A DNA stretch of 64,000 nucleotides from a virus (IMGVR_UViG_3300025508_000006:52031-116030); one strand, 5' to 3'; shown: positions 1 through 18,161, counted from the stretch's first letter. Notes: generated by a model from the letters alone, not told the origin. Translations and numbers: made by a program.

Positions 1-75
1 CCAACAAGAAACAATATCCTGAGATTCGACAACGAAGCGTCTATCGCTAGAGCAGTGCTTACAGACACCTTATAA
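1..75 (+). CDS. gp6: 3' end of baseplate wedge protein gp6 (partial)
   Basis: Frame 1 reads PTRNNILRFDNEASIARAVLTDTL*. It resembles the P-x-R-N-x-I-L C-terminus of gp6 in cyanophage-like T4s and lies directly upstream of gp8. Confidence 0.6.
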   Translation, partial: PTRNNILRFDNEASIARAVLTDTL

Positions 76-78
76 ATA
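71..78 (+). promoter_or_regulatory. T4-type late (gp55) promoter
   Basis: Exact TATAAATA upstream of the gp8 start. Confidence 0.8.
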
Positions 79-105
79 GACTCATATTACTAAAGAGAAA
101 AATAA

Positions 106-1500
106 ATGACATCTGCAATTACTAATACGTTTAGGAGTCTTCTTTTAGATCAACTTAAAGAAGACATCGACGGCACGAGCGAGAACTATTATATTGGTCT
201 TGCGAGGGCGGACTTGATTACCAATCCTACGATTGAAAACTCGATCTATGCGCAGAATCAAGTTAGACATTCTCTTCAGGCAGTTAAAGCACTGAATAAC
301 GCCTCTCATGTTATTAAGAACGTTACTTGGTCATCTGGTTTTGCTTACGAATCCTATAACGATGCTCTACCTGCTCAAGAGAATTTCTATGTTATTAATT
401 CATCAAGAGAAGTGTTTATCTGTATAGAGCAAGGTAAAAATGCTGAAGGTATTGTTCAGCAGTCAGTAAATCAACCATTCGCATCGCATGAACGATCTGT
501 TGTGAATGGAGGTGGTTTAGCATCTAATGGTAAAACCTTTATTCTCGAAGACCTATATAAGTGGCGTTACCTGTTCACACTATCAAACCTTGCATATGCT
601 ACATACAAAACAAACGAATGGATTCCAGTAAAGAAAGCATTATCTACTGCAACTATTGCAGAAGAGATAGAACAGTACACACTACAACAAGCATCAACTG
701 ACGGTGAAATTCTCAGTGTTGAAATTGTTGATGGAGGTTCAGGTTATACTGCAACTCCTGATCTCACGATAGATGGTGATGGTATTTTAGCAGACTTTGA
801 AGTCACTATCAATAATGGTAGTGTTGTAAAAGTAGAAGTATCGCAAAGTGAACTTGACGCATCGTATCAACACGGAACAGGTTATCGGTGTGCAATAGCA
901 ACATTATCTGCTGGTAATGCAGTACTGCGACCAATCATATCACCTCCGAAGGGCACACACGACGATCCAACTAAGATTCTAAAGTCGGTTGCACTAATGT
1001 TACAAGCAGATTTTAAATCGGACGAAGACGCGAAGATTCGAACAGAGAATGATTTTTATCAAACTTGTTTATTGAGAAATCTAAAGAAGTATGGTGACAG
1101 TGATGGAGAACAAGGTTATGTTGGTACAGATTCTGACTTTGATTTGAATGTTGGCAGCGCATTAAAAATTCTACAAATTAATAAAACAAATGGCGTGTTT
1201 GGTCCAGATGATGTATTCTCTAATGCTGAAAACACCATACAAGGTAAAGTGTATCACTATGATTCTGACGGTGCACAAAAGTTATATTATTATCAAGACG
1301 AGACTACAGGATTCGGTAAGTTTAATACCGGAGGTTCTCTTGTCAATAGAACCGTAACAGGCACAGGCAACATTCTTAGATTATTTAATCCTGACGTTGA
1401 CGCCACAACCGGTGATATTTTACACATAAATAATGTTGGACAGATAACACGCGGTTCTAATCAAACCGAAGACATTCGCATCGTAATTCAGTTAGGATAA
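106..1500 (+). CDS. gp8: baseplate wedge protein gp8-like
   Basis: N-terminal SAITNTFR...YYIGL, FYVINS..VFICI, YKWRYLF and C-terminal R...QTEDIRIVIQ motifs are typical of cyanophage-type gp8; position after gp6. Confidence 0.8.
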   Translation: MTSAITNTFRSLLLDQLKEDIDGTSENYYIGLARADLITNPTIENSIYAQNQVRHSLQAVKALNNASHVIKNVTWSSGFAYESYNDALPAQENFYVINSSREVFICIEQGKNAEGIVQQSVNQPFASHERSVVNGGGLASNGKTFILEDLYKWRYLFTLSNLAYATYKTNEWIPVKKALSTATIAEEIEQYTLQQASTDGEILSVEIVDGGSGYTATPDLTIDGDGILADFEVTINNGSVVKVEVSQSELDASYQHGTGYRCAIATLSAGNAVLRPIISPPKGTHDDPTKILKSVALMLQADFKSDEDAKIRTENDFYQTCLLRNLKKYGDSDGEQGYVGTDSDFDLNVGSALKILQINKTNGVFGPDDVFSNAENTIQGKVYHYDSDGAQKLYYYQDETTGFGKFNTGGSLVNRTVTGTGNILRLFNPDVDATTGDILHINNVGQITRGSNQTEDIRIVIQLG

Positions 1501-1512
1501 GAGACTAAAAAC

Positions 1513-4500
1513 ATGGCAAATATATTCACATCTAATACGTTATCTGGAAGTTATGCAGACGATTATAACGCTAATGACAACTATCATCAGATATTGTTTA
1601 ACAGCGGTCGCGCACTTCAGTCACGAGAACTTACACAGATGCAGACTCTTATCTATGAAGAGATGGGTCGCATGGGTTCGAACATATTTAAAGACGGTGC
1701 AGTAGTAAATGGTGGTGGTGTTAGCATGAACAATGCTTATCACTTCGTCAAGATTGCATCTACTAATCAGGGTGGCGAGTTCGGTGCTATACCAAACGGC
1801 ACTATCATAAAGAATCCTAACACAAATGTTTCTGCTCAGGTTATTCAAGCGATACCTGCTAACGGTACTCAGTTATTTGATACACTGTTCGTTGAGTACA
1901 TTAATAGTGGTAATGCACTAGCGACAAATTCACCAACTACATTTGGTGATAACGAAACCCTAGTTGAGCAATTTGCTACAAGCAGTGCTTATGAGTTAGT
2001 GACAGAGACTCCTGATGCGACAGGTTACGGTGCTAAGTTTACTGTTGCAGAAGGCGACTTCTTCATTCTAGGTCGTTTTGTTCATACCGAAGAACAGTCG
2101 ATTATTCTTTCATCTTATACTGGTGACAACATTAATGCTGAGGTAGGTTTCAAAGTCATTCAGCAAGTAGTAACTGTTACAGATACCGATTCTCTCTATG
2201 ACAATGCTTCGGGTATTGTTAATACTGCTTCACCTGGTGCTGATCGACTTCGCATCAGATTAGAACTTACTACTAGAGATTTGATTGGAGTAAACGATAC
2301 GTTCGTATTCCTTGCAGAGGTTGAAAACTCAGCAATCAGTGAACAACTACAATCTATTGACGCATATAGTAAAATCGAAGAACTTCTTGCGCTACGTACT
2401 AAGGAAGAGTCTGGTGATTATGTTGTCGAACCTTTCATTGTTAATGTCAGTGAAAACGACAATGGCATAGATGCTAATCTCGAACTTAATGTAAGTGAAG
2501 GTACTGCATATGTAAATGGTTATCGTGCAGAGAATCAATCACCAATTACTTTAAGTCTTCCACGACCAACAGAAACCGAGACAGTAGAGAACGATGTTAT
2601 CGGTGTGAACTACGGCAACTACTTTGTATGTACTGCAAACAGAGGTCTTCCTAATCTTGATCTTGCAAGAGTTGACTTGTGGAGCGCAACAGGTTATGGC
2701 GGTGGTGGTACTGATTACGGTACTTGTCGTATTCGTGCAGTAGAACCTTTCGGAACTAAGTTTAAAGTTTATGTATTTGACATGAGAGTGTTTACTACAG
2801 AAGACCTCGGTAATGTAAAAAGTATTGGTTCCTCAACTACTGATTACTTCGATATCGATTTACAGGGTGGTAAAGCAGTACTACACGAAACTACTAATAA
2901 TAATACAGCATTATTTGCAGCGGCATATCCTCGTATAGAGTCTCTTGCAGATATTGTGTTATCAAAACAAGTACGTCAACAAAAGACTGCATCCACTAAT
3001 GCTGTCACTCTTGATCAGTTACCCGTGGGTTCTTCATATGTAGATTCATCTTTATGGATTGTAAGTTTAAGCAGTGCAGTGATCGAAGCACCTAGCACCT
3101 ACACTGTTGCTATCACTAACGGTGGTAGAGATGCTACTATAACAAGTCTTGCTAGTGCTTCTGGTACGTATGAAATTCTTGCTTATGTTCAGAAGACTGC
3201 AACAGTTCGTCCAAAGACTCTCACAACCGCAACTGCAACTATCAACAGTACTACTGACTCTGCTGGTCGTACATTGTTTGATATTGGTGTTCCTGACATC
3301 TACTCTATTGATTCAGTGCGTCAAAGTAACAGTGTAGGTTTTGATCTCTCGTCCGCAGTAGTACTTGACGATGGACAACGTGACAACTATTATGCTGACG
3401 GTAGTCTTTTACTCAAAGAAGGTCATGCAGATCCTTCTGCGATCTACATTTCATATAAGCACTTTGCACGAGGCAGTGGTGATTTCTACGCTCCTTCTTC
3501 TTACAACGTTCCTTATAAAGATATTCCTTTACATACATCAGTCACTGGTGATACAATTGATCTACGTGATGTTGTTGACTTCAGAGGAGATAGAAATGGT
3601 TTCGAAGGAACTTTCTCTAATGTCAATGCTCTACCTAGAGTAGGTACTAATATTACTGCTGATATCGACTATTATCTACCTCGTGCAGATAAAGTGATTA
3701 TTACACCAGAAGGTGAAGTACAAGTATTAATGGGTCAGCAAGCGCGTGAACCTCAGTTCAAAGAAACGCCTATGCACTCTATGGAACTATACAAGATTAT
3801 TCTCAACGGTAATACTATCAGCGAAAATGATTTGACTGTACTTCCAACAGCACAGCAACGCGGTTACACGATGAAAGATATTGGTGATATTGATCGCAAA
3901 TTAGATGCTCTTGAAGAATCCACATCATTAAGCATTGCAGAACTTGAAGCGAGATTGGACAATGTTCTTGATAGTGCTGGTGTTATTCGTATCATTAGTG
4001 GTATGCAAGTAGACGAGCATGGCGATCAAGGCAATAGTGAAGTCGAATCACCCGATTATAAGGCAGCAATTGATCCTGAGAATCGTTTAGTACGTCCTTC
4101 TTTTGAAGAAGGTAATATGCGTCTAATCTTCGACTCGGCGGCATCTTCGGGTGTTGTTAAGAAAGGTGATAATGTTTATCTTGCTCACACCGAAGCATCT
4201 TGGGTAAACCAAAGTATTGCATCACGGTCAGTTAAGATCAATCCGTTCGGTCTTATTGATAATGTAGGAACGATGAAACTATCACCATCAACTGATGAGT
4301 GGAAAGAATCTATTCAAAATGCCGCCAAGTCTCTTGCGGGTTCGGGTCGTCTATTCGGTAATCAGGCATTCTTATGGAATAACTGGATGTGGAACTGGCA
4401 GGGACGTACTGCGAAAGAGAATGCTGAAATTTCTAAGTTGGCAGGAGTAGTTCGTACTGGTTCTGGCAGAGCGAAAGCATTTGCTTTAAGAACATTACAT

Positions 4501-6891
4501 AATAAATATGGACTATCACAATCCGCCACTATCAAACGTATTATCTCTGGTAATACTCTACGTAACGTAGTAGGTGACAGAACTATTGATGTTGCATTTG
4601 TACCATGGATTAGATCACGTAAGATTTACTTCAAGGCACAAGGACTAACGCCCAACACTAAGTTTACACCATTCTTTGATGGTACTGATGTTTCAGTTTG
4701 GTGTCGCGAAGAATCATCGTTTGTTCAGTGGTCTGATAGAACAGATGAGATTGGTAACAAGTTTACTCACTCAGCGATAGTCGGTCATCCAGACGGCACA
4801 AGCGATCTGATTGCTGATGCTAACGGCGAAGTTATTGGATCATTCTTCATTCCTAATATCAGTCCTAAGTTAGAAGTTGCTCACACTAAGTATCGCGGAC
4901 GATACAACAAATATTATCTACGATTCAGATCAGGCGCACGAGAGTTCAAACTTCTCGATATTAATGTCAATGATTGGGCAAGTGCAAACAGTAAAGCATT
5001 CACTCACTATACTGTTAAAGGTCTGTTGCCTTGGACTTGGTACAATCCTTTAACTTATACACGTGGTCATCGTTATCTTTATCCTTACAACTATCGACAT
5101 AAGTTGTATTCAGCAAAAGAAATGAAAAAGGTTCTTGATAGTATACCAGCGAGTCAGGTGAATATTATTGATCCAAGATTATCTGGACTATATGGTCCTG
5201 ACGGTGTATCTCTGAATGCGGCAGCACTACAGACGCTTGCTAATAATCAAGATATGTCTAAGGTTCTGTCTGACTACATTAACGTGAATCAGGCACAGTT
5301 CGCTTCTATTCTTGGTGTAAGAGCAATTCCTACTCCTATGAATCCATTGGCACAGTCCTTTAAAGTCAACAACGAGTTTGGCGTAACACTAACTAAAATC
5401 GAGTTGTTCTTTAAGTCGAAACCAACTAATGTATCTCTGCCTGTTTCTGTACATGTTCGTCCTGTAGAGAATGGTAAACCTTCGATGAGTAGCATAGTAC
5501 CAGACTCGCATGTTTATGTCAATAGTGCAAATGTTATTGTTTCTAGCACAGGTGCTCAGTTAGCAACTATTCAAGGTAATGGAACGTCATTCGTATTCGA
5601 CGAACCTATTTACTTGGCACCAGGACAAGACTATGCTATTGTAGTTACTTCACAGTCAACTGAATATGAATTGTTCAGTGCTAGAACTAGAGAGTCGGTT
5701 ATCAACTCAACTGGTAGATACAACACTACACAAACTCCGGGTTATCTCTTCTTACCACAAAATGGTAAGAACTGGGAGAAATCACAGAACGAAGACTTAA
5801 TGTTTAAAGTTACTCGTGCAGTGTTCGGTTCAGGCGGCGGTGCTAACGGTAGTGTGATATTGAAAAATGCTTCTGTTCCTGCTAAACTTCTTGAAGAGAA
5901 TCCGATTCAAACTACGTTCAGCGACGAAAAGATTTATGTACGTCACATCAATCACGGTTTACGTCCAGGTGATGGTTGTAATGTTGATAGTGCTACAGAA
6001 ACGGGTGGTTTCTCTGCCGCACAGTTGAGCGGTTCGCATCAAGTTATTGATGTTGATATGTACGGTTACAGATTTGAAATTGATCCTTCTAATCCTGTTG
6101 TTGCTACATCAACAGCAACTGGTGGTGGTGAGAGAGTATTGTCACAAGGAAATATAAACTTCTCAGTAGTTAATCCAATTATCGAGTCGATTATTCCTAA
6201 CTCTACTTCGATTGATGTATCAGGTAAGTTTACTTCTGGGCGATCAATCTCTGGTTCAGAAACTCGATTTACACAGGACGCTAATTTTAACAGAATTACT
6301 CCTAAGACTAATACTGATCTTGCCTCAACGTTCACTCTGTATAACGACTTCGAAGTTGATTCATCTACCATGAGCGGAATCAATTCTTCTACTTTGTTTA
6401 AAGTTGACATGAAGAGTGCTAATGATTATGTTTCACCAATCATTGACTTACAAAGATCATCTTTGGTCACAGTAAACAATCTAGTTGATGATCCATCGGT
6501 TACTCCTCACATCTATAGTGTTGGAGCAACGGCAGCATCAGGAGCGTCTTCAAGTACTGCTCACATTATGAAACCAGTTGTTCTTGATCAACCTGCTATC
6601 GGTATTGAGATTACAGCGGAGTTAGCGATACACTATACAAGTAATGTTAAAGTATACTATAGAGTAGGCGCCGCAGATGAGAATCTTAATGATCTTGTAT
6701 GGATACTTCAACCAGAATTTAGCACTATCGTTAAAGATGCACAAATGCGTAAAGTTAAGTTTCTTGCTGGTGGTCAGGGCGGTACACTGAAACCATTTAA
6801 TCAAGCACAGACTAAGTTGATTATTGAAGGAACTGATCCTGCAAATACAGCAAAAATAGGTGATATAGTTGTTAAGTGGTTAGCAAGTTAA
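1513..6891 (+). CDS. large virion structural protein, DUF4815/VrlC-like
   Basis: YADDY...YHQILF..GRALQSRELTQMQ N-terminus, TASPGADRL, RTKEESGDY and PLAQSF motifs; usual position after gp8. Confidence 0.8.
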   Translation: MANIFTSNTLSGSYADDYNANDNYHQILFNSGRALQSRELTQMQTLIYEEMGRMGSNIFKDGAVVNGGGVSMNNAYHFVKIASTNQGGEFGAIPNGTIIKNPNTNVSAQVIQAIPANGTQLFDTLFVEYINSGNALATNSPTTFGDNETLVEQFATSSAYELVTETPDATGYGAKFTVAEGDFFILGRFVHTEEQSIILSSYTGDNINAEVGFKVIQQVVTVTDTDSLYDNASGIVNTASPGADRLRIRLELTTRDLIGVNDTFVFLAEVENSAISEQLQSIDAYSKIEELLALRTKEESGDYVVEPFIVNVSENDNGIDANLELNVSEGTAYVNGYRAENQSPITLSLPRPTETETVENDVIGVNYGNYFVCTANRGLPNLDLARVDLWSATGYGGGGTDYGTCRIRAVEPFGTKFKVYVFDMRVFTTEDLGNVKSIGSSTTDYFDIDLQGGKAVLHETTNNNTALFAAAYPRIESLADIVLSKQVRQQKTASTNAVTLDQLPVGSSYVDSSLWIVSLSSAVIEAPSTYTVAITNGGRDATITSLASASGTYEILAYVQKTATVRPKTLTTATATINSTTDSAGRTLFDIGVPDIYSIDSVRQSNSVGFDLSSAVVLDDGQRDNYYADGSLLLKEGHADPSAIYISYKHFARGSGDFYAPSSYNVPYKDIPLHTSVTGDTIDLRDVVDFRGDRNGFEGTFSNVNALPRVGTNITADIDYYLPRADKVIITPEGEVQVLMGQQAREPQFKETPMHSMELYKIILNGNTISENDLTVLPTAQQRGYTMKDIGDIDRKLDALEESTSLSIAELEARLDNVLDSAGVIRIISGMQVDEHGDQGNSEVESPDYKAAIDPENRLVRPSFEEGNMRLIFDSAASSGVVKKGDNVYLAHTEASWVNQSIASRSVKINPFGLIDNVGTMKLSPSTDEWKESIQNAAKSLAGSGRLFGNQAFLWNNWMWNWQGRTAKENAEISKLAGVVRTGSGRAKAFALRTLHNKYGLSQSATIKRIISGNTLRNVVGDRTIDVAFVPWIRSRKIYFKAQGLTPNTKFTPFFDGTDVSVWCREESSFVQWSDRTDEIGNKFTHSAIVGHPDGTSDLIADANGEVIGSFFIPNISPKLEVAHTKYRGRYNKYYLRFRSGAREFKLLDINVNDWASANSKAFTHYTVKGLLPWTWYNPLTYTRGHRYLYPYNYRHKLYSAKEMKKVLDSIPASQVNIIDPRLSGLYGPDGVSLNAAALQTLANNQDMSKVLSDYINVNQAQFASILGVRAIPTPMNPLAQSFKVNNEFGVTLTKIELFFKSKPTNVSLPVSVHVRPVENGKPSMSSIVPDSHVYVNSANVIVSSTGAQLATIQGNGTSFVFDEPIYLAPGQDYAIVVTSQSTEYELFSARTRESVINSTGRYNTTQTPGYLFLPQNGKNWEKSQNEDLMFKVTRAVFGSGGGANGSVILKNASVPAKLLEENPIQTTFSDEKIYVRHINHGLRPGDGCNVDSATETGGFSAAQLSGSHQVIDVDMYGYRFEIDPSNPVVATSTATGGGERVLSQGNINFSVVNPIIESIIPNSTSIDVSGKFTSGRSISGSETRFTQDANFNRITPKTNTDLASTFTLYNDFEVDSSTMSGINSSTLFKVDMKSANDYVSPIIDLQRSSLVTVNNLVDDPSVTPHIYSVGATAASGASSSTAHIMKPVVLDQPAIGIEITAELAIHYTSNVKVYYRVGAADENLNDLVWILQPEFSTIVKDAQMRKVKFLAGGQGGTLKPFNQAQTKLIIEGTDPANTAKIGDIVVKWLAS

Positions 6892-7158: not shown

Positions 7159-10100
7159 ATGTCCTTACCGCTAAAACATCTCGGCACTGGTGCTCTTCAA
7201 GAACTCGCTACGCTTGATATTGATTATCTTGCGTATCAAGCGGGTATTCATCTTGGTAAAATGAGTAACGAAGATGTCTCTGCTATCTCCACAAATGGTA
7301 GCGGAGCAACAGTTGTCGGATCTTTTACAGATACTCTGTATGAGACAACAGTCGGTTCTACTCCAGGAACAACTTACACCGTAAACTTTACTGTTGAACA
7401 TCGTTCTAATCCTGGAACTGGTACACATACTGCAATATTCACAGCACAGAATGAAATGCCATCTCCTTTATATGTCGGAGATACAGTTTATGTTATCGTG
7501 AACGGTGATGCTATAACTGGATTCGAAGAGATCGGACACGAACTTGCTGTATCTGGTGATGCACTATTTGTTACCGAAGGTGTTAACACAACACCTACAG
7601 CAAATTCAGTTGATGGAACAAGAGTCGAGTGGGAAGACTTTCAGAATGTCGCAGGTCTCTCGGGATCATATCAGTCTGCCTTTGAAATTAAAGTGACTCA
7701 AGTAGGTCTCTTAAACTTTACTTTAACTGCTAACTCTACTGACGTAGATAACACAATCAAACAAACTGCTAATACTAGTATTATATTTCCTACTGTTGAA
7801 GTTGAAGAGACTTTACCACCGGAGTCTATAGGCGTACAGACTGATCTTTATCAAAAGACTACTGCTTCACAACCTATTAATACGACCAGTGCTTTAAAGA
7901 AAAATCCAATATACTGGAACAGAGCATTAACGCCTAATGGTGTTAAGGAGATGAATGACGCAGAACTTGACGCATTTTGCGAAGAGTTAGTCATACGTAT
8001 TATGCGGGACGAGTTGCCTGGTACTTATCGTCTATCCTCTAACAGTCCTGGTGCTAATTGGGTTCAGTTTATTCCTAGCGTATTCGAAGATACTCGTGCT
8101 GACGGAACTACAGTACCGTATTCAATATGGATAAGACAAGCGGGTATTAAACCTACTGTAATCAGACCAGTTTATGTTGCACGTAATGTAGAGAATGGTT
8201 GGGCAGGACTAAAAGAACATACAGATGCCGAAGTAGAATTTACTTTCGGCGAACGCGTAAAGAAAGCAATTGAAACTACAGGAATTGGTAAGTATCAGTT
8301 GCGCTCTTCAACACAAGGTGCACCCACTGATGCAGGTACATGGGTTGCACGTGGTAGTGCAATAGATACAAGACTTGAATACTTCTATGATACTGGTTAT
8401 CAGGCACTAGAAACCTACACGTCACAATATACAGAAGATTATCTTGGTGAGTATGAAGCAACTTATGCGGGTAACTATGAACCCACTTACACAGGCGAGT
8501 TCACAGGCGATTACCTAGGCACTTACGATGGTGACTTCATTGGCAACTACACTCCAACATATGACGGTGATTATCTAGGCGATTACTCGCAGAACTATCT
8601 TGGTGACTACAACACAGAATATACTCAGAACTATCTAGGTGACTATGTAAATCAATACACACCTACATATGATGGTGCCGATTACATTAGTGATTATGAA
8701 AATACATATGATGCTGATGCTGTCATTGAGCAATATGCCAGCGACTACGAATCTGTCGATTACGTTGGCAACTATATTTCTGATTATAACACAGACTATA
8801 TTTCCGATTATACCAATACATATCTTTCAGACTATTCTGGTACAGAGTATGTCGGCAATTATATTTCTGATTATCTAGGTGGATTCCAGACCGATTATCT
8901 CGGAAACTATATTTCAAATTATATTGATGATGTTTATGTAGGCAACTACATCACTGATTACACCAGCGATTATATTAGTAACTATCTTGGATCTTATGAT
9001 GGTGATTATCTAGGTGATTATGGCGCAAGTTATGAAGGTGCTTATGATAACTCATACGAAGGAGACTTCCAAGCAACTTATGCTGGTGACTTCACTGCTG
9101 ATTATCTCGGAACATATCTGACAGATTACGATTCGCAATACGAAGGGCAGTTCTCTGAAAACTACGATGGTGATTACATCAGCGACTATCTCGGAACATA
9201 TTCTAGTGGATATGAGTCTGAATATGAGACAGGTTATATAACCCAATACGAAGGCGCGTATGATGAATCAGAATATGTGGGCAACTTTGTTGCTAGTTAT
9301 GATAACTCATACGAAGGAGACTTCCAAGCAACTTACGCTGGTGATTACATCAGCGACTATCTCGGAACATACCTAAATGATTATGATTCACAATATGAAG
9401 GTCAATTCGCAGATAACTACGCCGGCGATTACATCAGCGACTACCTTGGAACATACGCTAGTGGATATGAGTCTGATTACTCCACTGACTACCTTACACA
9501 ATACGAAGGTGCGTATGATGAATCAGTATATGTGGGCAACTTTGTTGCTAGTTATGATAACTCATACGAGGGTGACTTTCAAGCAACTTATGCTGGTGAC
9601 TTCACTGCTGATTATCTTGGAACATACCTAAATGATTATGATTCACAATATGAGGGTCAGTTCGCAGATAACTACGATGGTGATTACATCAGCGACTATC
9701 TCGGAACGTACACTAGCGGATATGTGTCTGATTACTCTACTGACTATCTTACACAATACGAAGGTGCGTATGATGAAGCGAATTATCTAGGAAACTTTGT
9801 TGCTGATTATGTGTCTGACTTCGAAGGTGCTTACACCAATTTGTATGCTGGTGATTATATCAGCGACTATCTTGGAACATATGCTGGTGAATATGAAAGT
9901 GCTTATGCTACAAACTTCGATGGTATTTACGTTGGTGGATTCGATACAGATTATACAGCAACTTTTGATGGAGAATACGAGAACACCTATATCGGCAACT
10001 ATGTTTCAGACTATCTTAATGAGTTTGAAACCACATACACAGGCGACTATGGTGGTGAATACACCTCTACTTACGCCGGTAATTATAGTGGCAACTATAT

Positions 10101-13100
10101 TTCAGATTATACGAATGAGTTTGAAACCACATACATCGGTGACTATGGCGGTGAATATGTTTCTACTTACGCTGGTAATTATAGTGGCAACTATGTTTCA
10201 GACTATCTTAATGAGTTTGAAACCACATACGCAGGTGATTATGGTGGACAATATACTTCTACTTACGCTGGTAATTATAGTGGCAACTATGTTTCTGACT
10301 ATCTTAATGAGTTTGAAACACCATACGTAGGAAATTATAGCGGTGAATATGTTTCTACTTACGCTGGTAACTACCAAACACAATACGCCAATGACTATAC
10401 TAATGAGTTTGAAACAACTTATACTGGTGATTATCTAGGTAACTATGAAACTGATTATGCAGGCAATTATATTACTCAATACTCTGCCGAATATCAAGTA
10501 CCTTACACTGGTGTTTACACAGGCGATTACATCTCTGACTATATTGGTGATTACATCTCACCTTATGATGGCGCTCTGTACACTTCAGATTATATCTCTA
10601 CTTACGAAAGTGCATATGGTGGTCAATTTGAATCATCATACACTGGAGTATTTGACGGAACAACATACTCAGGAAACTATGCTAGTCAATACGTAGGCAA
10701 CTACATTGGCCTATACAACAAGAACTACGCGACAGCATATGAAGGCACTGATTACATATCCACATACGAAGAAACTTACACTGGAGATTATTCTGGACAA
10801 TATTCTTCTGCTTATGTAAGCGTTTATGATGCTCAAGCATATGCTACAGCATACGAAGAGAATTATATTGGAGATTATTCTGGTACATTCGGTGCTACGT
10901 TCTTAGGAACTTATGATAGTTCAAACTATACTTCAACATACGTAGAGACTTATGTTGGTGATTATCTTGGTAATTATGCTTCTGCTTATGTAAGCGTTTA
11001 TGATGCTCAAGCATATACTGCATCGTTTGACACAACCTATTCTGGTGAGTACTCGGGCGTATTTAACGCATCTTTTGCAGGCGAATATGATAGTACACAA
11101 TATACTTCATCATTTGAAACTACATATGTTGGTGATTATATTGGTCAATTTAGTCAGAACTTTGCTGCCAGTTTCGACGGAATACCTTATGTAGGATCAT
11201 TCGAGACAAACTATGTCGGCAACTATCTCGGACTGTTCACAGGTCAGTTCTCAGCATCATTTGCGGGTTCTGATTACATCTCAATATTTACTGCTCAGTA
11301 TACTTCGCAATATACTGGACAGTTTAGTGCTACTTTCAATGCTTCTTATGATGCTACAACATATGTAGGAGATTATGTATCTGGATACGCAACAGCATAT
11401 AGCGGTGCGTTTGGTGCAACCTTTATTGGCGAATATGATAGACAAGCATATGATACACAGTTTTCAGCAACTTATACCGGAAACTATATTGGTCTATTCT
11501 CTGCTACATTCTTAGGAACGTATGATAGAACAGGTTATGCTTCTAATTTTACTGCTGACTATACAGGTAATTATACTGGTGCCTTCGGTGCTACATTCTT
11601 AGGAACGTATGATCGTCTGCAATACACAAATGAATTTGAAAGTGCATATCTCGGCAACTATATCGGACTGTTCACACAAACGTATATTGGTTCTTATCAA
11701 AGAATCAACTATCTTACACAGTACGAAGGCATATACACAGGTGATTATAGTGGTGCCTTCAGTGCTACATTCTTAGGAACGTATGATCGTGCTGCCTATG
11801 CACGAGAGTATGACAGAGTTTATACAGGTAATTATACTGGCCAGTTCACAGCAAACTATGCCGCGACATATGATCGAATTGACTACACTTCTCAATACAC
11901 GGGCGGTTATACTGGCGGTCCCGCTGAAACTTTCGGTGCTACATTCTTAGGAACGTATGATCGTGCTGGATACGTATCACAGTATACGGGTCAATATGTC
12001 GGTCAAATTAGCGAAGTGTTTGGTGCTGATTACACAGGTAACTATGATAGTAGTAACTACACTTCGTCTTATACTGGACAATATGTAGGACAGATTGCTG
12101 AAAACGAGAATACCACCAATCAAGAATCTTTTGATAGTGGTCAATATGCCGCTCAGTACACAGGACAATATGTAGGACAGGTTGCTAAAAACGAGAATAC
12201 CACTAATGCTGAGTCGTATGATAGTTCAAACTACAACACACAATTTACTGGTAACTATACTGGCGGAGTTACTGAGAATATAACCCAGTCACAGAACGAA
12301 TCGTTCGCAAGAGATTCTTACGTCTCACAATATACTGGTCAGTATACTGGTGTAGTAGCACAAAACACTAACGAAACCTTTACACAAAACTTTAACGAAG
12401 CGGGATCCTATCAGGTTGGTTATGTAGGACAATATATTGGTCAAGTTTCACAGACTCAGCAAACTGGTGAGAGTGAAAACTTCCAAGTAAATTATACTGG
12501 TGATTATACTGGTCAATATATTGGAGTGATTTCACAGACCCAACAGACTGCTACAAATGAAGACTTCAACGTACAATATACTGGTGATTATACTGGTCAA
12601 TATACTGGTGCTGTACAGGAAGCAATATCTTCTACTTACACCGGTGGTTATACTGGTGTTTACAGTGGTAGTTATACTGGTGGTTATACTGGTGGGGTTT
12701 CTCAGACTCAACAGACTGGCATTGCTGAAGCAATAACACAGTCACAGAATCAGTCATTCGCCCGCAATTATGCTGGTAACATCTATGGGACTACTTCTCA
12801 GGTGTCTCTGGGATATACTTCTGACTCATATAATCTGGTGAGTAGTGTAGGTTATAACCCAATCAATCAAGGTGGTGCTTTTTACTCTGCCGGATCGATG
12901 TCTCCTACCTATTGGGGAGGAGGAGTCAATTCGACAGTCACTAAAGTATACAAAAAGAATAACTTTATATACGACGGCACCGGGCAAGATGAGATGCACC
13001 TGTTTTTCGGATCAACCTTCAGTGCATCACAGCAGGGTTCTTTCGGTTCTTTGTTTATATGGTATAGCGGGACTAGTACCACTGCGACTGCGGCAGACAG

Positions 13101-16100: not shown

Positions 16101-17688
16101 TGGTGAGTACGACGACATTGATTATGCAGGTAATTATATCAGTGACTTCGAAACTGATTACACGGGTTTCTATACCTCAGATTACATAGGCGATTATCAG
16201 AGTAATTATCTAGCAACATACGCAGGATTCTACGAGACTGCATTCACTGCAACTTATGCAAGTGAATATACTTCTAACTACGATGATCAAGATTATGCTG
16301 GCAACTATGTTAGTCTTTACACTGGGGATTTCATTGGACAATATACTTCAACTTATGAGACTGCTTATGATGACATCAACTACGTAGGCAACTATATCAG
16401 TGACTATGTTGGTGACTATAGCGGTGATTATGTAACAGATTACGTAGGGGATTATCAGAGTGATTACCTAGCAACATACGCAGGATTCTATGAGACTGGA
16501 TACCTTACAACATATGGAAGTGAATATACTTCTAACTATGACGACATTGATTATGCTGGTAATTATATTAGTCTTTACATTGGCGACTTCATTGGACAAT
16601 ATACTTCAACTTATGAGACTGCTTATGACGACATTGATTATGGTGGTAATTATATTAGTGACTATGTTGGTGACTATAGTGGTGATTATGTAACAGACTA
16701 CATAGGCGATTATGAGAGTAATTATCTAGCAACGTATGCAGGATTCTATGAGACAGAATACCTTACAACATATGCAAGTGAATACACGTCCAACTATGAT
16801 GATCAAGATTATGCTGGCAACTATGTTAGTCTTTACATTGGTGACTTCATTGGACAATATACTTCAACTTATGAAACCGCATATGATGACATCAACTATG
16901 TGGGTAATTATATTAGCGACTATGTTGGTGACTATAGCGGTGATTATGTAACAGATTACACTGGAGTTTACGAAGAGCAGAACTACCTCGGCAATTACGT
17001 ATCAACTTATGATGATATTGAATATGAAGGTAACTATGATTCAATCTACACTACAGATTATCTTGTTGACTTCGAGGGTAATTACTTAGGTGATTACAAC
17101 ACAATCTACGAAGGAACTTATGAGTCTTTATATTCAGGTGACTTCTTACAAGGATTTGATGGAGTCTATGAGGGTGGTTTCGATTCTACTTACGCAGGTG
17201 ATTACGGTACTACTTACGCAGGAGACTATGAGTCAAACTACACACTAACTTATGTTGGTGATTATCTTGGTGACTATACTCCATCGTACTCAACTCTATA
17301 TGCTGGCAACTACACAGGCACTTATGACGCTGATGCAGTAGATGAGTCTTACACTGTTGATTATATCGAACAAACTTATGATACGGACTACACAGTAGAC
17401 TATCAAGAGGATGTCTATCTGGGCAACTATATAGATACATTTGACGGCGCAGATGTTGAAGAGACTTACGTTTCCTCTTATGACGATGTTGATTATTCTA
17501 CTGACTATTCTTCTGACTACGATAATGTCGATGCAATAGAGAACTATCAAGATGCTGATTACACAGGAACATATACTCAAGACTATGCGATAGATTATCA
17601 AACATCTATATTATACGGTGTTGGTGGCAAGTTACTTGCTAATCCAGTACAAATTGAAACATACACATTATATGTAAGGGTAGCATAA
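7159..17688 (+). CDS. giant (3509 aa) Tyr/Asp/Gly/Thr-rich tetrapeptide-repeat protein, putative hairpin fibre
   Basis: Uninterrupted 10.5-kb ORF behind a late promoter in the tail module. [Y/F]xxx periodicity runs over about 2900 aa with a central non-repetitive domain. Confidence 0.8.
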   Translation: MSLPLKHLGTGALQELATLDIDYLAYQAGIHLGKMSNEDVSAISTNGSGATVVGSFTDTLYETTVGSTPGTTYTVNFTVEHRSNPGTGTHTAIFTAQNEMPSPLYVGDTVYVIVNGDAITGFEEIGHELAVSGDALFVTEGVNTTPTANSVDGTRVEWEDFQNVAGLSGSYQSAFEIKVTQVGLLNFTLTANSTDVDNTIKQTANTSIIFPTVEVEETLPPESIGVQTDLYQKTTASQPINTTSALKKNPIYWNRALTPNGVKEMNDAELDAFCEELVIRIMRDELPGTYRLSSNSPGANWVQFIPSVFEDTRADGTTVPYSIWIRQAGIKPTVIRPVYVARNVENGWAGLKEHTDAEVEFTFGERVKKAIETTGIGKYQLRSSTQGAPTDAGTWVARGSAIDTRLEYFYDTGYQALETYTSQYTEDYLGEYEATYAGNYEPTYTGEFTGDYLGTYDGDFIGNYTPTYDGDYLGDYSQNYLGDYNTEYTQNYLGDYVNQYTPTYDGADYISDYENTYDADAVIEQYASDYESVDYVGNYISDYNTDYISDYTNTYLSDYSGTEYVGNYISDYLGGFQTDYLGNYISNYIDDVYVGNYITDYTSDYISNYLGSYDGDYLGDYGASYEGAYDNSYEGDFQATYAGDFTADYLGTYLTDYDSQYEGQFSENYDGDYISDYLGTYSSGYESEYETGYITQYEGAYDESEYVGNFVASYDNSYEGDFQATYAGDYISDYLGTYLNDYDSQYEGQFADNYAGDYISDYLGTYASGYESDYSTDYLTQYEGAYDESVYVGNFVASYDNSYEGDFQATYAGDFTADYLGTYLNDYDSQYEGQFADNYDGDYISDYLGTYTSGYVSDYSTDYLTQYEGAYDEANYLGNFVADYVSDFEGAYTNLYAGDYISDYLGTYAGEYESAYATNFDGIYVGGFDTDYTATFDGEYENTYIGNYVSDYLNEFETTYTGDYGGEYTSTYAGNYSGNYISDYTNEFETTYIGDYGGEYVSTYAGNYSGNYVSDYLNEFETTYAGDYGGQYTSTYAGNYSGNYVSDYLNEFETPYVGNYSGEYVSTYAGNYQTQYANDYTNEFETTYTGDYLGNYETDYAGNYITQYSAEYQVPYTGVYTGDYISDYIGDYISPYDGALYTSDYISTYESAYGGQFESSYTGVFDGTTYSGNYASQYVGNYIGLYNKNYATAYEGTDYISTYEETYTGDYSGQYSSAYVSVYDAQAYATAYEENYIGDYSGTFGATFLGTYDSSNYTSTYVETYVGDYLGNYASAYVSVYDAQAYTASFDTTYSGEYSGVFNASFAGEYDSTQYTSSFETTYVGDYIGQFSQNFAASFDGIPYVGSFETNYVGNYLGLFTGQFSASFAGSDYISIFTAQYTSQYTGQFSATFNASYDATTYVGDYVSGYATAYSGAFGATFIGEYDRQAYDTQFSATYTGNYIGLFSATFLGTYDRTGYASNFTADYTGNYTGAFGATFLGTYDRLQYTNEFESAYLGNYIGLFTQTYIGSYQRINYLTQYEGIYTGDYSGAFSATFLGTYDRAAYAREYDRVYTGNYTGQFTANYAATYDRIDYTSQYTGGYTGGPAETFGATFLGTYDRAGYVSQYTGQYVGQISEVFGADYTGNYDSSNYTSSYTGQYVGQIAENENTTNQESFDSGQYAAQYTGQYVGQVAKNENTTNAESYDSSNYNTQFTGNYTGGVTENITQSQNESFARDSYVSQYTGQYTGVVAQNTNETFTQNFNEAGSYQVGYVGQYIGQVSQTQQTGESENFQVNYTGDYTGQYIGVISQTQQTATNEDFNVQYTGDYTGQYTGAVQEAISSTYTGGYTGVYSGSYTGGYTGGVSQTQQTGIAEAITQSQNQSFARNYAGNIYGTTSQVSLGYTSDSYNLVSSVGYNPINQGGAFYSAGSMSPTYWGGGVNSTVTKVYKKNNFIYDGTGQDEMHLFFGSTFSASQQGSFGSLFIWYSGTSTTATAADRAGHRFYSSQATLSLGTNQTHYAWLLGSVGTQYPLWTSNLNAEGTPWNVAWIPNTTSSTNYNAGTYTGQYSGQYVGVYVGGYTGVYTRVQQTTVIDNVAETIQQSYTGTYTGGYERSQNQTFSAVYAGTYTGQYTGGYVGAYERAQNQTFTAVYQGTYTGIYTGGYVGLYERAQNQEFAVVYTGSYLGDYTGQYSGGYERAQDETFGATYIGDYIGQYSGQYSGVYTREQATNYASDYLGTFVGNYTGQYLGLYERAQNESFTVNYQGTYTGGYTGQYAGLYERAQDQAFAANYLATFEGAFGAQYTGLYERAQDQTFAATYTGTFEGNYVSQYTGSYERVQDQQFSANYLGTFNASYASQYEGAFASDYATQYASQYVGTFEGDYLSQYTGGFTQNFTGQFGVNYEGTFDGNYATQYEGNFSQSFTGTYATQYTGTFEGNYVSEYSGAFAALYTGDFAASYLATFDGNYVSQYEGNFAANFGAQFSEQYIGTFSGDYVSEYIGAFNVTYQGNYTSDYIDTYTSDYVSQYESQFSAVYAGNFEGAYTDDYLGEYASQYEGNFSATFTGTYNVDYIDTYTSQYLSTYEGAFQAQFIGTYDSQYLGTFIGDYGSAYESNFTANFDGTYDSAYIDTYAGDYISAYTGAFQANFEGTYDTQYLGTFEGNYVSQYTGDFAATFTGTYDVDYIDTYAGDYISAYIGTFQANFVGTYDGNFTGTYATGYNTDYEGAFLVDYLGDYISDYVPTYEGQYATQYEGDYASQYLGNYNSAYTSTYDGNFTQTYAGNFTDVYVSDTYIGDYINQYTQDYVSGYATQYEGAFQQNYIGTYDTQYESQYTQDYVSDYDSGYVGDDLEQYDGTYGTAYAGDFIQDFITDYDSQYEGDFQQNYVGTYGTAYSGDFVQDFITDYDSGYEGDFQQNYAGTYGTAYAGDFIQDFITDYDSSYEGDFQQNYVGTYQTAYAGDFTADYLTQYTASYDGTVYAGTYDSNYINQYESDFTEQYTGEYDDIDYAGNYISDFETDYTGFYTSDYIGDYQSNYLATYAGFYETAFTATYASEYTSNYDDQDYAGNYVSLYTGDFIGQYTSTYETAYDDINYVGNYISDYVGDYSGDYVTDYVGDYQSDYLATYAGFYETGYLTTYGSEYTSNYDDIDYAGNYISLYIGDFIGQYTSTYETAYDDIDYGGNYISDYVGDYSGDYVTDYIGDYESNYLATYAGFYETEYLTTYASEYTSNYDDQDYAGNYVSLYIGDFIGQYTSTYETAYDDINYVGNYISDYVGDYSGDYVTDYTGVYEEQNYLGNYVSTYDDIEYEGNYDSIYTTDYLVDFEGNYLGDYNTIYEGTYESLYSGDFLQGFDGVYEGGFDSTYAGDYGTTYAGDYESNYTLTYVGDYLGDYTPSYSTLYAGNYTGTYDADAVDESYTVDYIEQTYDTDYTVDYQEDVYLGNYIDTFDGADVEETYVSSYDDVDYSTDYSSDYDNVDAIENYQDADYTGTYTQDYAIDYQTSILYGVGGKLLANPVQIETYTLYVRVA
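9046..9800 (+). repeat. 3 x 255-nt (85-aa) coding tandem repeat, N-arm
   Basis: GATAACTCATACGA recurs at 9046, 9301 and 9556. Confidence 0.9.
9990..10440 (+). repeat. about 4.5-5 x 96-nt (32-aa) coding tandem repeat, N-arm
   Basis: NEFET motif every 32 aa; GAGTTTGAAA at 10021, 10117 and onward. Confidence 0.85.
15500..15990 (+). repeat. about 5 x 96-nt (32-aa) coding tandem repeat, C-arm
   Basis: GTYGTAYAGDFIQDFITDY/EGDFQQNY units; CTTACGGAACTGCA at 15671, 15767 and onward. Confidence 0.85.
16110..16960 (+). repeat. 3 x 258-nt (86-aa) coding tandem repeat, C-arm
   Basis: TAGCAAC (YLATYAGFYET) recurs at 16211, 16469 and 16727. Confidence 0.9.
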
Positions 17689-18161
17689 TGACAGTGGAAT
17701 TTTTAGACAATGGATTTTGGGAAAACGAAGAAAAGACAATACTTAAATGTATTCGCTTAACTCCTATACCAGAAGGAGGTAGAAAGAAAGACGTTCTTGA
17801 ACTACGTAAGATATTGCCGGACGGTTCAGAATGTCCTCAGTTCAAGCAGTGTATCGCACAGCATGGTATAGCAAAGATTGATGCTAATACGCAAGTTCGA
17901 AAGGATACTAAAGAGAAAGAAGATCGAGAGAAACGTGCTATACACGAGCAACGTAAAAAATCTCACGAACTTGAACAACTCTTTAATGCCAAACTACAAG
18001 CATTCGAAATTGATGAGATCAAGAACTCAACAAATCGCGAGTTGCGTTCTAAACTACGTAGGGCGAAGAATGTTATTGAAATGAATGCATTGGCAGCATT
18101 AGTGATTGGAAGTGAACTTGGTTATTTTAAAAAGGTAGATGAAGATGAGCGAACCGACTAA
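17688..18161 (+). CDS. hypothetical Lys/Arg/Glu-rich helical protein, possible fibre chaperone
   Basis: TAATG stop/start overlap with the giant ORF; charged helical composition. Function is inferred only. Confidence 0.6.
   Translation: MTVEFLDNGFWENEEKTILKCIRLTPIPEGGRKKDVLELRKILPDGSECPQFKQCIAQHGIAKIDANTQVRKDTKEKEDREKRAIHEQRKKSHELEQLFNAKLQAFEIDEIKNSTNRELRSKLRRAKNVIEMNALAALVIGSELGYFKKVDEDERTD

Follow-up and report, generated by a model that had tools for sequence, protein, structure and literature searches.

A giant fibre protein of a T4-like phage that probably begins and ends in one three-module base

The closest described counterpart of the protein analysed here is gp37 of bacteriophage T4, in which the needle domain D11 (residues 882-1009) is inserted in the collar domain D10 (811-881 and 1010-1026; PDB 2XGF). 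The stem of this needle runs out in residues 882-931 and back in residues 960-1009, with a small apical tip (932-959), and the D10 fold is common to parts of gp12, gp10 and gp11 (PMC6957217). A second point of reference is MABP, a beta-prism with internal three-fold symmetry that is composed of three homologous segments (PMC2881412). Here we describe a giant fibre gene in a stretch of 64,000 nucleotides of viral DNA (IMGVR_UViG_3300025508_000006:52031-116030), which is called the window throughout. Its product of 3,509 amino acids (aa) probably starts and ends in one and the same three-module base, with the fibre forming a single loop in the hairpin turn of module 3 (Table 1).

In the proposed architecture, the first ~406 and the last 11 residues would fold together as one compact base, whose three modules (strand-strand-helix-strand-hairpin) would be arranged around a pseudo-threefold axis in a beta-prism-like manner. 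Each module would close with a beta-hairpin, the turn of which is taken to be a 161-aa immunoglobulin-like (Ig-like) domain in module 1, five residues in module 2 and the whole fibre in module 3. The chain would exit along the third strand of module 3 (..GSAIDTRL), run 1,468 residues out to a 166-aa tip and 1,458 residues back, and re-enter as the fourth strand IETYTLYVR, terminating two residues after it. The base would be completed in cis and grip both ends of the out-and-back fibre, probably bringing the two arms into register and anchoring the fibre on the baseplate. With both termini housed in a constant domain, the tip and the length of the arms would be free to vary.

The layout of the base is seen three times in the family alignment: a short strand of the P-L-K-L type with a Gly turn, the motif L-x-E-M-x-D with a helix after it, a strand with the pattern G-x-Y-x-L-x-S, another strand with D-T-[RK] at its end, the turn, and a Y-x-h-[YW]-x-[RK] strand. 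All motifs from which a preliminary description of this DNA had drawn three modules and a returning C-terminus were recovered where it had placed them, namely ALQELATLD (aa 12-20), FTDTLY (56-61) and TDLYQK (228-233) in module 1, GVKEMNDAE (261-269) and FEDTR..YSIWIR (309-326; nucleotides 8083-8136) in module 2, GLKEHTDAE (350-358) and AIDTRL (401-406; nucleotides 8359-8376) in module 3, and ETYTLYVR (3500-3507; nucleotides 17656-17679) at the C-terminus. This arrangement exceeds chance, because Y-x-[LIVM]-[YW]-x-[RK] has only two matches in the 3,509 residues, at aa 321 in the fourth strand of module 2 and at aa 3502 at the C-terminus, and DT[RL] has only three, one in each module. Among the other proteins of the window, none combines the return-strand motif with a terminal R-x-A.

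The relationship of the modules was assessed with profiles cut from a 77-sequence alignment (A1) and compared by hhalign. Module 2 and module 3 with the C-terminal strand appended aligned end to end over 75 columns (score 46.3, probability 95.8%), modules 1 and 3 over 40 columns (34.7, 89%), and modules 1 and 2 over 63 columns (24.6, 45%). Controls with 40 column shuffles per pair scored 9-10 +/- 2 and never above 16.7, and reversed profiles about 10. Since the profile scores far exceed both kinds of control, the three N-terminal modules are, as judged from their sequences, homologous, and the hidden Markov model comparison that the preliminary description had called for thus upholds its proposal. 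A chance likeness of short motifs within one non-repetitive domain is extremely improbable: it could appeal to the low probability for modules 1 and 2 and to the lack of any matching Pfam or PHROG repeat family, but all three pairs lie 8-15 standard deviations above the column-shuffled controls, modules 2 and 3 correspond over their entire length, and two independent models each predict the same pattern of secondary structure three times over.

With aa 1-410 as the query, a full HMMER scan, supplemented by a word-indexed search that recovered shorter relatives, assigned the window protein to a family of tyrosine-ladder hairpin fibres from uncultured T4-like phages, with 296 clusters at 50% identity in the HMMER scan. 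IMG/VR contributes at least 202 loci, and the sole deposited phage genome with a family member is that of C48C1 (Kyanoviridae), whose 3,347-aa 'hypothetical protein' ends in VTETYTLYVRVA. The family signature consists of a base ending in G-x-W-x(2,3)-[KR]-G-x-A-x-D-T, aromatic-rich repeats and the C-terminal motif [IV]-E-T-Y-T-L-Y-V-R-x-A, and all three parts are present in the window protein. The C-terminal motif lies at most five residues from the C-terminus in 108 of the 168 retrieved sequences, nine others have a 27-aa extension after it, and the remaining ones are for the most part fragments at contig ends. Its core T-Y-T-L-Y is among the best-conserved stretches of the family alignment and is kept, position by position, in 140, 141, 143, 141 and 143 of 143 distinct sequences (98-100%). 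Mutual information between C-terminal and base columns is uninformative for this core because it is invariant. For the residue before the last one (T, I or V), mutual information, uncorrected for phylogeny, peaks with columns of the R-R-P-V-x-W strand at the start of module 2 (0.81-0.89), which is only a hint of the neighbours of the return strand. The 27-aa extension beyond the return strand (..TYTLYVR-TTAQELIFAPLGADAMILSDGLTLIVR) is conserved in the subfamily of P0003, P0007, P0009-P0012 and P0027, and it is modelled in P0027 as two short strands of low confidence.

We found no description of this fibre family or of its C-terminal motif in the literature. Base and C-terminus are without a match in Pfam and PHROGs (in Pfam none at E<=10 for 27 family members), a sequence-profile search of the PDB returned a chance match only (E 0.46), and the ESM Atlas holds unnamed viral clusters only, the nearest named family being Gp10_C at 0.76, a level often due to chance.

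The position of the return strand was investigated in AlphaFold2 models of two natural short relatives, P0132 (381 aa; alignment A1) and P0027 (1,190 aa; alignment A3), the latter with an N-terminal region 47% identical to that of the window protein and the same insert in module 1. The P0132 model has a mean predicted local distance difference test (pLDDT) of 78.7 and a predicted template modelling score of 0.76, and its secondary structure shows the order E-E-H-(E)-E-E (E, strand; H, helix) three times. The third strand of module 3 extends to 27 residues (263-289) and the final strand to 29 residues (351-379), there are no other long strands, and the strand leaving module 3 is the only partner of similar length for the C-terminal one. 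On both, pLDDT is 96 beside the base; it drops to 43-49 in the distal 60 residues and recovers to 96-97 over the last 20 residues of the chain. With only two long strands and a symmetric decay of confidence, the model is consistent with an antiparallel hairpin that has its root in the base. In P0027, pLDDT amounts to 80-98 in the base, about 30 in residues 410-1144 and 81-82 in the block of the motif, which is the sole confident element after ~740 residues at about 30 and forms a strand (1153-1165) equal in length to the module-3 strand 395-407.

The base model of P0132 was further compared by VIA-align with 48,161 PDB representatives, of which only 22 chains reached Z>=2. The best matches are MABP-type beta-prisms (8b6v, Z 7.3; 2qp2, Z 6.9; 3tow, Z 6.0, with 113/152 residues aligned), and their alignments cover the model from residue 41-42 to residue 381, the last one, thus indicating that the final strand belongs to the compact domain. 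The confident C-terminal strand in both models and the extent of the base alignment support the earlier claim that the C-terminus returns to complete module 3. The same observations bear on an alternative in which the C-terminal motif would serve to dock onto another protein, such as a baseplate component or the conserved 157-aa protein encoded downstream, and module 3 would be complete on its own. In its favour, docking tags typically show such conservation at the extreme C-terminus, and a protein of 153-157 aa always follows the fibre gene. We still regard this alternative as very unlikely, given that module 3 without the strand would miss the fourth strand that is present with the same Y-x-h-Y/W-x-R/K pattern in modules 1 and 2, that AlphaFold2 places the motif in the base at pLDDT 81-97 without any partner, and that the prism alignments take in the last residue.

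The region between D-T and the C-terminal motif is read as an insert. Its length ranges from 99 aa in P0132 to 3,772 aa in P0086 (4,046 aa in total), the smallest one among the IMG/VR loci has 138 aa, and no insert below 99 aa occurs in module 3 among more than 140 complete relatives. The insertion site had been thought to tolerate anything from a few to thousands of residues; the upper end is borne out by the 3,772 aa, but the lower end fails for module 3 and holds only for the turn of module 2. A suggested search for short homologues that lack the insert likewise came back empty, the shortest module-3 insert being 99-100 aa. The insert of module 1, described earlier as about 165 aa and Ig-like, is closer to 161 aa (62-222) and Ig-like in a broad sense: residues 86-220 of the P0027 model are all-beta and match cohesin and pilin Ig-like sandwiches at VIA Z 8.2-9.0. 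This Ig-like insert is found in the subfamily of the window protein, whereas the turn of module 1 comprises ~13-22 aa in most members, holds ~285 aa in P0035 (2,068 aa) and an unrelated insert of ~170 aa in P0067. As the turns of modules 1 and 3 hold inserts and that of module 2 is always tight, the hairpin turn is a permissive insertion site in two of the three modules. Outside the turns, P0035 carries another domain of 274 aa beyond the return strand, and P0159 has additional material between modules 1 and 2.

Both arms of the window protein (aa 407-3498) carry an aromatic residue at every fourth position in ~290-300 of ~340 spacings per arm, and His, Trp, Met and Cys are all absent from their 2,926 aa. 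A comparison of the two arms for mirror symmetry of composition revealed a weak correlation, which is mostly an acidic gradient (D+E: r = 0.50 mirrored, -0.54 direct). Further insight into the arms is provided by a sister lineage with split genes (L083, L087, L089), where a first open reading frame (ORF1) encodes base, outward arm and tip and a second one (ORF2) the return arm ending in VETWTLYVR. ORF1 of L083 (8001-11060) has 1,019 aa with a globular tip, and its stop codon TAA overlaps the ATG of ORF2 (11060-12586; overlap TAATG), whose 508 aa consist entirely of aromatic repeats and end in VETWTLYVRIA. The arrangement is the same in L087 and L089, two different tip domains occur among the split loci, and relatives seemingly without the motif (P0013, P0014, P0016, P0017) proved to represent the first halves of split genes. 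The single-ORF form prevails in 79 of the 80 IMG/VR loci that were gathered through the motif.

The split genes keep the return arm and the terminal strand, which shows that the covalent link at the tip is dispensable and that return arm and strand are not. Arm lengths match within proteins (1468/1458 in the window protein; 429/497, 448/473 and 490/527 in the split pairs) and differ 3.4-fold between proteins; together with the split forms, these matched lengths support a pairing of the two arms. In the split forms, 8-mers of the AVSQTFEG type precede those of the SYTPTFTG type in both arms in chain order (L087 ORF1, aa ~690-855; ORF2, aa ~20-195), with similar block lengths in L087 (~100 and 65 aa versus ~90 and 85 aa). 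The same block order in both arms would imply that unlike block types face each other in an antiparallel in-register hairpin. Locating the tip by the loss of aromatic periodicity, as part of a family-wide test of arm symmetry, proved too noisy and was dropped.

Several observations weigh against the proposed architecture. The C-terminal strand gains no more hhalign score when appended to the module-3 profile than arbitrary nearby 12-mers do, so that the 11-residue strand cannot be positioned in module 3 from sequence profiles alone. We infer its pairing with module 3 from DSSP assignments, pLDDT and aligned ranges of the models. The Z scores of the prism matches (6-7.3) lie in a range rated common for VIA, and Foldseek returned nothing at E<=0.001 from the PDB and BFVD. 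Only the gene neighbourhood suggests an attachment of the base to the baseplate. The monomer models do not discriminate between completion in cis and a domain-swapped arrangement, and the split forms document that the return strand can complement the base from a separate polypeptide.

These last two points would favour completion in trans, with the C-terminal strand entering module 3 of another copy and giving rise to dimers, to chains or to loops that connect adjacent positions on the baseplate; moreover, the related collar domains of T4 function as trimers (PMC6957217). Such a domain swap is nevertheless unlikely. The near-equal arms with the tip at their midpoint (1468/166/1458) fit self-pairing, the return arm of the split forms is encoded beside the outward arm that belongs to it and resembles this arm in length, and three modules in one chain already provide the three-fold set that a trimer would supply.

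If closure of module 3 by its own C-terminal strand is correct, it explains how these fibres can vary from ~100 to ~3,800 residues and swap their tips with the virion-attaching part unchanged. It would also supply a rule for reading the abundant unannotated fibres of marine and freshwater myoviruses, i.e., base, outward arm, tip, return arm and an 11-residue clasp. A beta-hairpin turn that accommodates an insert of 3,092 aa in the window protein and one of as many as 3,772 aa among its relatives would be of interest for protein engineering, and the split forms represent a natural split-protein pair for complementation studies.

The fibre gene is located in a baseplate and tail-fibre block within the late structural region of a T4-like phage. 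Further genes of the window encode a baseplate wedge protein (phrog_438), a DUF4815/phrog_358 protein, tail-fibre-like proteins, neck proteins, sheath, portal and terminase. Gene order around the fibre gene is conserved, with a phrog_358/877 protein upstream and the protein of 153-157 aa plus two further ORFs downstream. In L007 the upstream protein is itself split into ORFs of 1,201 and 534 aa. The downstream protein has no Pfam or PHROG family and is 40% identical between the window and L007, whose fibre has only 430 aa; it may be a dedicated assembly factor.

Table 1. Parts of the giant fibre protein, its conserved neighbours and split-gene relatives. Positions refer to nucleotides of the window unless another locus is named.
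Feature	Position	Strand	Basis or remark
Giant fibre gene, 3,509 aa	7159..17688	+	ORF list and translation
Module 1, first part: strand PLKH, strand LQE, helix 21-33, third strand 50-61 ending FTDTLY	7159..7341 (aa 1-61)	+	Secondary structure of the P0027 model mapped via alignment A3; hhalign homology
Predicted Ig-like beta-sandwich in the turn between third and fourth strands of module 1	7342..7824 (~aa 62-222)	+	Absent in most members; P0027 model; VIA
Module 1, fourth strand, ..VQTDLYQK	7825..7857 (aa 223-233)	+	Family alignment; P0027 model via A3
Module 2, complete compact copy with 5-residue turn (DTR-ADGTT-VPYSIWIR)	7903..8136 (aa 249-326)	+	Family alignment; hhalign; motif positions; A3
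Module 3, first part: strands, helix 356-374, YQLRS, third strand from 394 ending AIDTRL and continuing into the outward arm	8158..8376 (aa 334-406)	+	Family alignment; hhalign; both AlphaFold2 models; A3
Insert, 3,092 aa: outward arm 1,468 aa, tip 166 aa, return arm 1,458 aa	8377..17652	+	Arm lengths, composition
Tip domain, non-repetitive, 166 aa	12781-13278	+	Within the insert
C-terminal return strand IETYTLYVRVA, read as fourth strand of module 3	17653..17685 (aa 3499-3509)	+	Conservation; both AlphaFold2 models; split-gene forms
Upstream neighbour, 1,792 aa, DUF4815, phrog_358/877	1513-6891		Conserved left neighbour across the family
Downstream protein, 153-157 aa	window 17688-18161; L007:7310-7771; L083:12601-13068; C48C1 151149-151610		Always after the fibre gene
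Split-gene loci	L083:8001-12586; L087:8001-12609; L089:8001-12589		Base, arm and tip ORF, then return-arm ORF

A possible kinship of the base with the T4 collar proteins was examined at the levels of sequence and fold. The end of the fibre family (..IETYTLYVRVA) resembles that of gp37 (..IAFNYIVRLA). In T4, with gp37 at locus L090 and the other three at L091, gp10 terminates in ..YITVYRWIRIA, gp11 in ..TVFYHFERTA and gp12 in ..SLNYIIKVKE, and the consensus end of the gp11 family is ..LYYFKRxA. The termini of gp10, gp11 and gp37 all conform to [aromatic/hydrophobic]-x-R-x-A-COOH, as do those of the fibre family. The only phage protein family among the VIA matches is gp11 (1EL6, Z 3.1, root-mean-square deviation 3.6 A, 49 residues, 24% identity), with model residues 240..381 aligned to gp11 63..219 and spanning the insert on both sides (module 3 and return strand); a second gp11-like chain, 9f4b_FD, has a Z of 3.0. 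A 15-sequence gp11 profile (A5), with its terminal hairpin compared to module 3 plus return strand, scored 20.6-21.2 (P 5e-4 to 8e-3) over 23 columns, pairing GTW..G..T and the final strand, versus shuffled control maxima of 17-19.5. The proteins gp37 and gp12 are absent from the VIA matches, hhalign scores against D10 of gp37 (11-13) correspond to background, and comparison of the modules with single T4 sequences of gp10, gp11, gp12 and gp37 yielded background values. Pfam gave no match either. The signal of homology between the base and the collar of gp11/gp37 is marginal.

It is conceivable, if doubtful, that the base is a single-chain pseudo-trimer of the collar or foot module that gp10, gp11, gp12 and gp37 of T4 use as homotrimers, its three copies having been fused and having diverged. 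The fibre would then be a monomeric two-stranded aromatic-ladder ribbon of ~1,460 residues per arm, closed by a strand complementation that may also occur between two gene products. If this holds, it would represent a monomeric architecture without a described counterpart among phage fibres, in which a homo-oligomeric fibre base was made into an asymmetric single chain with a different insert in each copy. A base that completes module 3 with its own C-terminus would suggest a tentative link between the fibre family and the gp10/gp11/gp12/gp37 module.

Of the known folds, the whole base best matches the MABP-type prisms of the C-terminal domain of Plu-MACPF (2QP2), MVB12B (3TOW) and Mp2Ba1 (8B6V), at Z 6.0-7.3 over 113-119 aligned residues. 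It resembles them in its three homologous segments, which in MABP go along with internal three-fold symmetry, but each module of the window base has a helix together with a larger number of strands, the sequences are not related, and MABP domains serve membrane binding in unrelated proteins. With their middling Z scores, the prism matches would support a pseudo-threefold arrangement in the sense of a shared layout and not of kinship. T4 gp11 (PDB 1EL6, PF08677) has a foot domain with an inserted finger domain, and the turn of its equivalent hairpin comprises four residues; it forms a trimer with one such domain per chain, in contrast to the three modules within one chain of the window protein.

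The comparison leads back to gp37, with which the window protein shares, at the level of prediction, an elongated out-and-back element in a small base domain that is completed by the last ~15-17 residues. The insert comprises 128 aa in gp37 and 3,092 aa in the window protein, i.e., ~25-fold more. Iron sites of the His-x-His type hold the gp37 needle together as a homotrimer, whereas the arms of the window protein are devoid of His and this motif and show the aromatic residue at every fourth position. The collar of gp37 is present in one copy per chain and trimerises, whereas three copies are fused in one chain in the window base. By analogy, the window protein may work like the tip of gp37, although membership in the same family is not established. 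The needle-in-collar design as such is already known from T4 gp37, and the window protein would be a much enlarged version of it on a single-chain three-module base; new are this base, the near-invariant return strand, the insert range of 99-3,772 aa and the split-gene forms.

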